Virus record (IMG/VR): IMGVR_UViG_2778261512_000011
Location: 1 to 5,098 of that record
Length of the DNA: 5,098 nucleotides
Source: a virus
Taxonomy: Duplodnaviria; Heunggongvirae; Uroviricota; Caudoviricetes
Strand: one strand, 5' to 3'
The first letter of the stretch is position 1; each line of letters opens with the position of its first letter. The notes beneath the pieces are model-generated. The model had not been told where the DNA came from. It did no database searches and saw only the letters and a program-made list of their open reading frames with translations. Made by a program: the position numbers and the translations under genes. Shown here piece after piece: positions 863 through 4,025 of this stretch.

Positions 863-1586
<724 letters not shown>

Positions 1587-1758
1587 TTTCTCTGTTTGTT
1601 TTTTAAGCTATCAATCTCTGGCTTGTGGATAAGTTGGAAGGTATTCGCTGCTAATGTATTGACATTTACAAAATATAGGTATTTTGGGGTTGTCTAAAAT
1701 TACCTATAGGGTAAACTTCACTTAAGCTCCTACATGAGAGCTTCTGAGGAGAGATAAA

Positions 1759-2055
1759 ATGAAAACCTTACGTTGCATGGCCTACCAGCAGAACGGCGTT
1801 TACGTAGCTGCATGTTTAGACCTGTCATTGGCAGCGCAAGCAGATACTATGAAAGAAGCTGTAAACAAACTGGATGAGCAGATTAAAGATTTTTTCACTG
1901 AAGCGCTATCAGAGCCGGAATATGCAAAACAACTACTAAGTCGGAAAGCACCTTTATCTATGTGGCTTAAGTATTGGGTAATTGCATTTCAGGTTTTTGT
2001 CAGAAAACGAGGTGAAGCAAAACTCTTTGCTGAGCCTTGTGATGCTCATGCTTAG
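1759..2055 (+). CDS. HicB-like antitoxin candidate (98 aa; N-terminal HicB/UPF0150-type fold, no recognisable C-terminal DNA-binding domain)
   Basis: Seen in sequence: ORF with a GAGGAG Shine-Dalgarno at 1746-1751, eight nt before the ATG. Its N-terminal segment NGVYVAACLDLSLAAQADTMKEAVNKLDEQI follows the pattern of HicB N-domains (compare E. coli HicB GGYMVSFVDIPEALTQGETVAEAMEAAKDAL, from memory). It sits 11 nt upstream of a HicA-like ORF. Function is inferred from motif resemblance only. Confidence 0.6.
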   Translation: MKTLRCMAYQQNGVYVAACLDLSLAAQADTMKEAVNKLDEQIKDFFTEALSEPEYAKQLLSRKAPLSMWLKYWVIAFQVFVRKRGEAKLFAEPCDAHA

Positions 2056-2066
2056 GGTTACATTAC

Positions 2067-2351
2067 ATGTTCTTGAAAAAGCTTACTCCTTTGAAATACG
2101 ACGAGGTAATCAGGGGACTTAAGAAAATGGGGTTTGAAATGAAACCTAAAACAGGAACCTCTCACGAACAGTGGGTTCTCAAGAACAGTAAAGGAAAATG
2201 GGTGGTTACAGTTGATAAGCATCACGCCCCATTCTCCAGAGATTTAATAAAATCCATGGCTAAGCAAGCTGGACTGAAAGCTCGTCACTTTCATGCGTTA
2301 TGCAGAGGTGACGCAACGCTTGAGGATATAGGATTCCAAATCATTAGCTAA
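2067..2351 (+). CDS. HicA-like toxin candidate (94 aa; putative mRNA interferase with short N- and C-terminal extensions)
   Basis: Seen in sequence: residues 10-70 (KYDEVIRGLKKMGFEMKPKTGTSHEQWVLKNSKGKWVVTVDKHHAPFSRDLIKSMAKQAGL) align by eye to the HicA signature GW/GF ... G-S-H ... VTV ... H ... DL ... I ... KQAGL (compare E. coli HicA EFRRWLESQGVDVANGSNHLKLRFHGRRSVMPRHPCDEIKEPLRKAILKQLGL, from memory). The Shine-Dalgarno is weak, but the gene sits close behind the upstream ORF, consistent with coupled expression. Confidence 0.6.
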   Translation: MFLKKLTPLKYDEVIRGLKKMGFEMKPKTGTSHEQWVLKNSKGKWVVTVDKHHAPFSRDLIKSMAKQAGLKARHFHALCRGDATLEDIGFQIIS

Positions 2352-2379
2352 AACCCGGCCACCGCGCCGGGTTTTCTTT
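2351..2379 (+). terminator. Rho-independent terminator ending the cI-side transcription unit (stem 2353-2359 / 2366-2372, loop CACCGC, then TTTTCTTT)
   Basis: Seen in sequence: AAACCCGGCcaccgcGCCGGGTTTTCTTT directly after the HicA-like stop codon (2349-2351): a GC-rich 7-9 bp stem followed by a T-tract. Confidence 0.7.
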
Positions 2380-2530: not shown

Positions 2531-2593
2531 AACCATCTGCGGTGATAAATTATCTCTGGCGGTGTTGACATAAATACCACTGGCGGTGATACT
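2531..2593 (+). promoter_or_regulatory. Left operator and pL promoter: OL3 2531-2547, OL2 2551-2567, OL1 2575-2591; pL -35 TTGACA 2565-2570, -10 GATACT 2588-2593
   Basis: Seen in sequence: three 17-bp sites that, read on the other strand, are TATCACCGCAGATGGTT, CAACACCGCCAGAGATA and TATCACCGCCAGTGGTA, identical to lambda OL3/OL2/OL1 as I recall them. The hexamers are near-consensus with a 17-nt spacer and point toward N. Confidence 0.85.
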
Positions 2594-2773: not shown

Positions 2774-3097
2774 ATGGATGCACAAACACGCCGCCGCGAA
2801 CGTCGCGCAGAGAAACAGGCTCAATGGAAAGCAGCAAATCCCCTGTTGGTTGGGGTAAGCGCTAAACCAGTTAACCGCCCTATTCTCTCGCTGAATCGCA
2901 AACCGAAATCACGAGTAGAAAGCGCACTGAATCCGATAGACCTTACGGTGCTGGCTGAATACCACGAACAGATTGAAAGCAACCTGCAACGTATTGAGCG
3001 CAAGAATCATCGAGTTTGGTATAGCAAGCCAGGTGAGTTCGGTATAACTTGTCAAGGAAGACAAAAGGTTAAAGGGGAATCCATTCCATTGGCATGA
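2774..3097 (+). CDS. N: Antitermination protein N (107 aa)
   Basis: Seen in sequence: ATG at 2774 preceded by AGGAGAA; MDAQTRRRERRAEKQAQWKAANPLLVGVSAKPVNRPILSLNRKPKSRVESALNPIDLTVLAEYH... is the lambda N arginine-rich motif and N-terminal region. The track ORF from 2684 is an in-frame upstream extension through the leader and is not the gene. The last 45 or so residues differ at several positions from lambda N as I recall it. Confidence 0.93.
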   Translation: MDAQTRRRERRAEKQAQWKAANPLLVGVSAKPVNRPILSLNRKPKSRVESALNPIDLTVLAEYHEQIESNLQRIERKNHRVWYSKPGEFGITCQGRQKVKGESIPLA

Positions 3098-3105
3098 GGT
3101 ACGTA

Positions 3106-3975
3106 ATGAAGAAGATTGATTACAAGTCCATACCAAAACCAATAGACTCAGCATCAGAGCGAAAAAAACACAAAAAAGAGGCTGAAAAATTAGCAAATTA
3201 TATCAGTTTTATTAGAAACAATGCTCACGGCGATGGCGACAAGAAGTTGCTTTCAGATGCTCGGACCCAAGCGTTCGGTATACTTCGTAAGCAGATGCAA
3301 TATCGTCTTCATCCTGGCTACATAATTGAAATTCGCCCTACTGAAAGACAATTGTTCTTATTAAACTCTGTCTTTGACTTTGTAAACGTAGTTGGAGATC
3401 TTATCGACAGGTCTGTAGATAAGGATCCTGATACAAATAGTTTTCTTCTAACAAATAAAGAATACTTATATGGTAAATTCGGTATAAACGGATGGCAAAA
3501 ATATGTACGCTTCTTACGTGCATTCGTTGATGCGTATAAAAATTCCGACATGATTTATACATATTTGCCTGGTGGTGATAATTGTACGCTTTCGGCAGAC
3601 AATAGAATATTCATACCTGTACTTGGTCTTGGGCTGATTAATGCAGTAAATGAAAAAGATGTTATAATTGTTAAGCAGTGGCGAAAATATGAGGGATATA
3701 GATATCTGCCATGCTTTGATATATTAAAAATACAGAATAAATTCTATGTAAAAATTAAATATAAAGAAGATATTTTCTTCCTCAGAAAAAACATAGATCT
3801 TTTACAAGAACTTTCTGGTACAATAGATGTCATCTTAGGTTCTAGGTTTATAAAAGAACTGAAAGAAAGCAGGTCTTTCTCTCGTGTAGAGATAAGCGAG
3901 TCAGAGTTATGGGGTATATCAAATAATCCTGTAAACCACGCTCACCAACGAAACCCAAACAAAAAGTGGTCATAA
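3106..3975 (+). CDS. Hypothetical protein, AT-rich moron in the sieB/ral position (289 aa from ATG 3106; 293 aa if the ATG at 3094 overlapping the N stop is used); function unknown, candidate superinfection-exclusion / abortive-infection or anti-defence protein
   Basis: Seen in sequence: a long uninterrupted plus-strand ORF directly after N. ATG 3106 has a GAGGT Shine-Dalgarno 5 nt upstream; the alternative ATG 3094 overlaps the N stop as ATGA. The stretch is visibly much more AT-rich than the flanking lambda-like DNA (many AAA/AAT/ATA/TTT codons). No Walker, nuclease, HTH or transmembrane motif recognised. The functional call is inference from position only. Confidence 0.75.
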   Translation: MKKIDYKSIPKPIDSASERKKHKKEAEKLANYISFIRNNAHGDGDKKLLSDARTQAFGILRKQMQYRLHPGYIIEIRPTERQLFLLNSVFDFVNVVGDLIDRSVDKDPDTNSFLLTNKEYLYGKFGINGWQKYVRFLRAFVDAYKNSDMIYTYLPGGDNCTLSADNRIFIPVLGLGLINAVNEKDVIIVKQWRKYEGYRYLPCFDILKIQNKFYVKIKYKEDIFFLRKNIDLLQELSGTIDVILGSRFIKELKESRSFSRVEISESELWGISNNPVNHAHQRNPNKKWS

Positions 3976-4025
3976 CCCGCTCAGGCGGATTTCATTTTCA
4001 CGCAAACAACAGAATAAACACAGCG

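Follow-up and report, generated by a model that had tools for sequence, protein, structure and literature searches.

Which genes take the place of rexAB in a lambdoid immunity region that lacks them, and what might they do for the lysogen? These questions are raised by the 5098-base stretch of phage DNA analysed here (hereafter, the window), a lambdoid phage immunity region whose orientation is reversed with respect to the lambda map. About two thirds of the window were 96–97% identical to lambda and its relatives, and the remainder, including 1587-2351, had no lambda counterpart. The following features were recognised:

before cI, minus strand: cII and cro
873-1586, plus strand: cI repressor gene of lambda immunity type (237-aa ORF; Pfam Peptidase_S24 at 99.9 bits, plus HTH_3)
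1587-1758, plus strand: leader of the cassette, 172 nt (from the homology break after the cI stop and the RNA fold)
1690-1717, plus strand: candidate cassette promoter TTGTCT-16-TAAACT, 8/12 matches (our own scan; position and spacing conserved)
1724-1743, plus strand: leader hairpin, AAGCTC-8 nt-GAGCTT (from the RNA fold)
1746-1751, plus strand: Shine-Dalgarno sequence GAGGAG, directly after the leader hairpin
1759-2055, plus strand: hicB-like antitoxin gene, 98 aa, ATG start (predicted HicB N-domain, partial RNase H fold)
2067-2351, plus strand: hicA toxin gene, 94 aa, ATG start (predicted dsRBD-like RNase toxin, G30-x-x-H33 motif)
2350-2379, plus strand: intrinsic terminator Timm, the right-hand junction of the cassette (stem and U-rich tail; homology to lambda and mEp234)
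2531-2593, plus strand: OL operators and pL promoter, the end of the immunity slot (TTGACA-17-GATACT at 2565-2593)
2774-3097, plus strand: N gene (Pfam N36)
after N: a 293-aa ORF, followed by an ea10 (DUF2528) homologue

The two co-oriented ORFs that make up the cassette, of 98 and 94 aa and separated by an 11-nt gap, lie at the predicted coordinates and on the same strand as cI. Their placement could be defined to the base. The cI gene of the window is nearly identical to lambda cI, with homology to lambda and mEp234 extending to the stop codon, and OL/pL are likewise near-identical to those of both phages. In alignments with lambda, mEp234 and an O157:H7 prophage, lambda homology ended right after the cI stop and resumed at AACCCGGCC, which is the first arm of the Timm hairpin; hence, the cassette replaces exactly the lambda rexA-rexB interval. 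The absence of rexA and rexB, as originally proposed, was borne out both by this loss of lambda homology from the cI stop to Timm and by a PADLOC scan of the window ORFs, which was empty.

The strong intrinsic terminator ascribed to the pair is real, but it is not specific to the cassette. A perfect 10-bp stem (2350-2359/2366-2375) is followed by a U-rich tail (−16.3 kcal/mol, z −3.07), and the hairpin overlaps the hicA stop codon, starting at its second base; a simple terminator scan of the plus strand did not list it. This hairpin is homologous to the 'Timm' of the mEp234 annotation, is present in lambda just past rexB, and also ends the shared DNA in heteroimmune copies of the cassette; it thus belongs to a backbone common to lambda, where the cargo is rexAB, and mEp234, where it is hicAB. 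The interval from the cI stop to Timm is best explained as a slot for exchangeable cargo, occupied by rexAB in lambda and by hicBA here.

A separate observation concerns the AT-rich ORF directly 3′ of N (3094-3975, plus strand, 289–293 aa, GC 0.35), for which no match was found in Pfam, NCBIfam or PADLOC. Its last 20 residues (...NPVNHAHQRNPNKKWS) matched the PHROG 'Nun-like transcription termination factor' (E 5e-5), and a phage 434 gene that bears the annotation 'Nun C-terminal peptide-containing protein' shares 99.7% identity with the ORF. The product may act in exclusion, with a Nun-type peptide at the C terminus of a large and otherwise unrelated protein.

With regard to the second gene of the cassette, its assignment as a HicA-type toxin was confirmed by profile search, in which the 94-aa protein matched Pfam HicA_toxin (PF07927) well above the gathering score (42.3 bits, cut-off 27; E 8.4e-11) and over profile positions 2-58 of 58. 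An AlphaFold2 model built from 30 homologues (pLDDT 81.2) displayed the order helix-strand-strand-(strand)-helix, that is, the dsRBD-like layout of HicA, and the protein is basic (pI 9.95). His33 was invariant in the 30 homologues and lies inside G30-T31-S32-H33, where a few homologues have Ala instead of Gly30; the spacing of G30 and H33 equals that of G28 and H31 in gp91 of phage Adephagia, residues that have been proposed to be catalytic there. Matches to the HicA fold were missed by Foldseek, and NCBIfam and PADLOC gave no match for either the 94-aa or the 98-aa protein. Taken together, the identity of the 94-aa protein as HicA is strongly supported. A sequence/profile match to PDB entry 1whz, with whose His residue H33 was aligned, pointed in the right direction but was weak (E 0.03–0.17), and was not used as evidence.

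The 98-aa protein had been described as HicB-type, and this description held at the level of the fold, whereas every Pfam threshold was missed. None of the HicB-type families (HicB, HicB_lk_antitox, DUF1902, UPF0150) was matched above threshold, the best score being that of DUF1902 (16.4 bits against 22), a family that was also matched weakly and below threshold by 20 of the 31 members of the protein's own family (best E 2.9e-4); the RefSeq name of the protein is 'DUF1902 domain-containing protein'. For this reason, the assignment rests on the predicted structure. The model, of moderate confidence (pLDDT 79.7; 54–64 in the other four models), ran through three strands and a long helix to a final strand, with two additional helices ahead of the latter, which corresponds to the partial RNase H fold (beta-beta-beta-alpha-beta) of the HicA-binding N-domain. 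PDB matches to 1wv8 and 2yzt were weak (E 0.4–1.4) and were set aside. The modelled fold thus supports, with the reserve due to a predicted structure, a HicB-like antitoxin. [quoted passage not shown]

The two genes travel together. Of 39 species-level genomes, drawn from Enterobacterales, Pasteurellaceae, Neisseria, Xanthomonadales and Methylococcales, 33 had a HicA homologue immediately after the HicB homologue, as did 42 of 46 viral contigs from IMG/VR, and the gene order never varied. Between diverged copies of the cassette, purifying selection was strong on both hicB and hicA (dN/dS 0.02–0.10). Two exceptions to the pairing kept hicA fragments. In Photorhabdus akhurstii (L020, ~5300-5353) and Xenorhabdus koppenhoeferi (L030, ~2232-2333), a hicB-like gene was found beside a hicA fragment only, and these loci look like cases in which the toxin gene has decayed and the antitoxin has been kept.

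Among 5426 complete E. coli genomes, 20 carried the cassette, always annotated as 'DUF1902 domain-containing protein | HicA family toxin'; a DNA-level search of the phage GenBank collection did not find it, and a literature search for the RefSeq accessions of the proteins returned no mention. Whenever HicB identity was 82% or more, the copy, whether in an E. coli genome or an IMG/VR contig, lay immediately 3′ of a gene for an S24/HTH CI-type repressor and had the same orientation. These repressors fell into 11 clusters at 90% identity, i.e., at least 11 distinct S24 alleles, so that the cassette is common to many immunity types. The DNA shared by all copies ran from approximately window position 1710, just before the −10-like element, to 2382, through the terminator hairpin. 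Homologues with 75% identity or less were found elsewhere, namely between tail genes of Klebsiella prophages and at a chromosomal site in Atlantibacter. In the Pseudomonas syringae phage Medea1, a pair with 39–55% protein identity directly follows cI. The deposited annotation of this phage (MW862109; L004, 3629-4192) places a minus-strand hypothetical gene, Medea1_0056, across the plus-strand hicB-like/hicA-like pair, and this minus-strand call is probably a mis-annotation.

In several heteroimmune copies, remnants of the cI 3′ end (CAGTGGCC..GAGACGTTTGG) were duplicated ahead of the cassette. Two or three such remnants in tandem lie between the resident cI and the cassette in the IMG/VR contigs L059 and L062 (~3717-4000), where they read CAGTGGCC..GA(T/G)GAG(A/G)(C/T)GTTTGG when compared with window 1560-1586. 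Remnants of this kind look as if recombination at the cI 3′ boundary had exchanged the cargo, repeatedly in the tandem cases, and left scars. The recurrence of the cassette behind at least 11 repressor alleles, and behind the cI of a Pseudomonas phage, suggests selection for expression in the lysogen. This recurrence also supports the idea of the cI-to-Timm interval as a hotspot at which cargo of benefit to lysogens is exchanged.

How the cassette is expressed was approached through its leader. That no terminator separates cI from the cassette was verified, since a scan of the plus strand found none and the RNA fold consisted of AU-rich hairpins without a U-tail. Read-through from pRM/pRE into the cassette is structurally plausible, because the pair is co-oriented with cI, no terminator intervenes and Timm follows the pair. 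Apart from read-through, the cassette is probably also transcribed from a weak promoter of its own, judging by the conservation of the candidate element at 1690-1717. Its place and spacing were kept as TTGCCT-16-TAAACT in copies with ~91% DNA identity and as TTGTTA-16-TACACT in copies with ~77%; the same position in a Klebsiella prophage homologue holds TTGAAG-17-TAAACT, and the element aligned with promoters matching the consensus at 11/12 positions ahead of the Pseudomonas phage homologues (Medea1 and P27). The 6-bp stem of the leader hairpin was similarly conserved in the ~91% and ~77% identity copies. An Rfam search of 1500-2800 gave no match.

Two further elements of the leader were considered and rejected. 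An upstream TTGACA (1659-1664) had no acceptable −10 at 16–18 nt downstream and was discarded as a −35. An AT-rich inverted repeat (1674-1685/1697-1708) was dropped as an operator, as it was not conserved in the ~91% and ~77% identity copies. This repeat, TATAGGTATTTT / AAATTACCTATA (window 1674-1708), flanks the −35-like hexamer, and the equivalent upstream site in homologues holds unrelated short palindromes in Photorhabdus (CTATACGGTCTGTATAG), Xenorhabdus (TTATCAATTTGATAA) and a Klebsiella prophage (CAACCAAAGGTTG). Such palindromes occur although HicB here has no recognisable DNA-binding domain.

We consider it fairly probable that the pair constitutes a functional Class 2 hicBA toxin-antitoxin (TA) module, carried as exchangeable cargo of the slot and expressed in the lysogen, where it would most likely serve to exclude other phages. 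According to this proposal, HicA would be a small, basic, RNA-binding endoribonuclease with His33 in its active site, and the single-domain HicB would neutralise it by direct binding through the partial RNase H fold. Transcription in the lysogen would be provided by read-through from pRM, by pRE at establishment and probably also by the weak promoter of the cassette. Infection would cut the supply of HicB and release HicA, and other phages would thereby be excluded from the lysogen; prophage retention would be the next most likely role. Defence is plausible because the cassette sits in the Rex exclusion slot, which is transcribed in lysogens. The experimental record of related systems has nevertheless been negative so far: a 2024 review regards the anti-phage activity of HicAB as still in need of validation by experiment, HicAB2 of the Pseudomonas putida prophage P1 is a working TA system with no effect on phage plating or prophage stability, and no targeted phage was found for Adephagia gp90/91 among those tried. 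That the cassette is expressed in lysogens as a true abortive-infection system, and has again and again taken the place of Rex-type cargo behind numerous CI repressors, seems to us somewhat doubtful.

An unlikely explanation, though the main rival, is that the module acts purely in prophage addiction or retention and has no anti-phage role, so that upon loss of the prophage or of the immunity region the labile HicB would disappear and the longer-lived HicA would arrest the cells. TA modules on mobile elements classically serve to stabilise them; the HicAB of one Paracoccus prophage stabilised a plasmid, and that of an IncI2 plasmid is an addiction module. The failure of the tested prophage systems mentioned above (P1 HicAB2 and gp90/91) to give defence points the same way, and the Photorhabdus and Xenorhabdus remnants, with decayed hicA beside intact hicB, are as expected for decaying addiction modules. 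Yet P1 HicAB2 did not affect the stability of its own prophage either, an integrated lambdoid prophage is already very stable, and a recurrent position within the lysogenic operon, next to at least 11 cI alleles and in the slot that rexAB holds in lambda, would be more usual for lysogenic-conversion or exclusion cargo. It is very improbable that the cassette is either selfish, hitch-hiking cargo, as its occurrence in many unrelated contexts might indicate, or a counter-defence supplying HicB against HicA-type toxins of the host, in either case without an exclusion benefit to the lysogen. Phages do often carry antitoxins or antitoxin mimics as counter-measures, as summarised in reviews, but hicA, for which pure counter-defence would have no need, is undamaged here, catalytic His included, and purifying selection acts on it as strongly as on hicB.

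The same evidence can be weighed against the regulatory model of the original prediction, in which the cassette has neither a promoter nor autoregulation of its own and is expressed solely on the cI transcript, control having been handed to CI. The uninterrupted path from cI to hicB, the shared Timm, a HicB devoid of a DNA-binding domain and a standard promoter scan (9/12 threshold) that found nothing in 1587-1758 all fit this model. However, antitoxin-first order without a DNA-binding domain, which had been read as an adaptation to CI control, turned out to be a widespread trait of Gerdes Class 2 that is also found where no cI is near. Moreover, homologues of the pair are found isolated in chromosomes and between the tail genes of prophages, so the hicBA family must be able to express itself; this occurrence at sites lacking cI, a promoter-like element kept in position at only ~77% DNA identity and the promoters with 11/12 matches ahead of the Medea1 and P27 homologues argue against a transfer of control to CI. 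Were pRM the sole source of transcript, HicB would no longer be made after induction, and the lytic growth of the phage itself could be poisoned; in Adephagia the antitoxin is needed for normal lytic growth (PMC11373665). A CI-independent promoter, we infer, would keep HicB supplied after induction, when pRM is shut off. On balance, exclusive control by CI appears improbable. One possibility is that expression is tied to the immunity switch by pRM read-through together with the weak promoter, the balance between toxin and antitoxin reporting infection or loss of repression.

HicAB is among the commonest TA families, and its anti-phage role is so far a proposal, with two tested prophage systems negative. 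The preferred reading, that of a lysogen-expressed Class 2 module with a probable part in phage exclusion, can be put to the test unusually easily, since the cassette lies in the best-understood lysogenic operon, exactly in the Rex slot and under lambda immunity. Its main value is therefore that of a convenient test case for the defence of lysogens by HicAB. Should the abortive-infection reading be true, phage defence would have been shown for a HicAB system for the first time; should the cassette be inert against phages, it would add to the evidence for a non-defence role of prophage HicAB modules.

In comparison with known systems, the cassette agrees with Class 2 hicBA as described by Gerdes (2024, mBio, PMC10865869), in which hicB comes first, HicB has 63–103 codons and no DNA-binding domain, and the genes are closely linked; the corresponding features here are 98 codons, no DNA-binding domain and an 11-nt gap. 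The folds are also shared, i.e., alpha-beta-beta-beta-alpha (dsRBD-like) for HicA and beta-beta-beta-alpha-beta (partial RNase H) for HicB. It differs from Class 2 in the length of HicA (94 aa compared with the typical 60–85 aa), which has an extra C-terminal helix and a variable tail, in the two extra helices of HicB between alpha1 and the last strand, and in its placement in the cI operon, which is not treated in PMC10865869. The classical hicAB arrangement (Gerdes Classes 3 and 4), with the toxin gene first and a C-terminal HTH or RHH domain of HicB that autoregulates the operon, was not found in the cassette.

An experimentally validated parallel in a temperate phage is the Class 2 HicB/HicA pair gp90/gp91 of the mycobacteriophage Adephagia, for which toxicity and neutralisation were shown experimentally and whose antitoxin is expressed in lysogens (PMC11373665). 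Both are hicBA modules of temperate phages with a G-x-x-H motif in the toxin and an antitoxin without a DNA-binding domain, while the Adephagia proteins are smaller (65 and 71 aa).

The cassette shares with lambda RexA/RexB the slot, the orientation, the terminator and the two-gene format, and both are presumably transcribed with cI in the lysogen. The proteins differ, as neither PADLOC nor DNA alignment revealed homology to RexA/RexB. Rex consists of a RexA sensor and the membrane channel RexB, which depolarises the cell; a HicA toxin cleaves RNA.

The presence of HicAB in the rex slot is itself not new, having been annotated earlier in the lambda-immunity phages mEp234 and HK106 (GenBank EF120460 and EF120461, deposited 2007), where hicAB likewise replaces rexAB between cI and Timm and is co-oriented with cI. 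We take Degnan et al. (2007, Mol Microbiol) to be the source publication of these entries. HicA and HicB of that cassette both scored above the Pfam thresholds, and the arrangement differs from that in the window: it is canonical and toxin-first, HicB is 152 aa long with a C-terminal extension, and a third gene follows. In mEp234 this third gene (L006, 2526-2951, 141 aa, after hicA-hicB) had no Pfam match. The mEp234/HK106 pair and that of the window belong to different HicAB classes and bear no detectable sequence similarity to each other (hhalign probability <2%), and they therefore represent independent acquisitions by the same slot.
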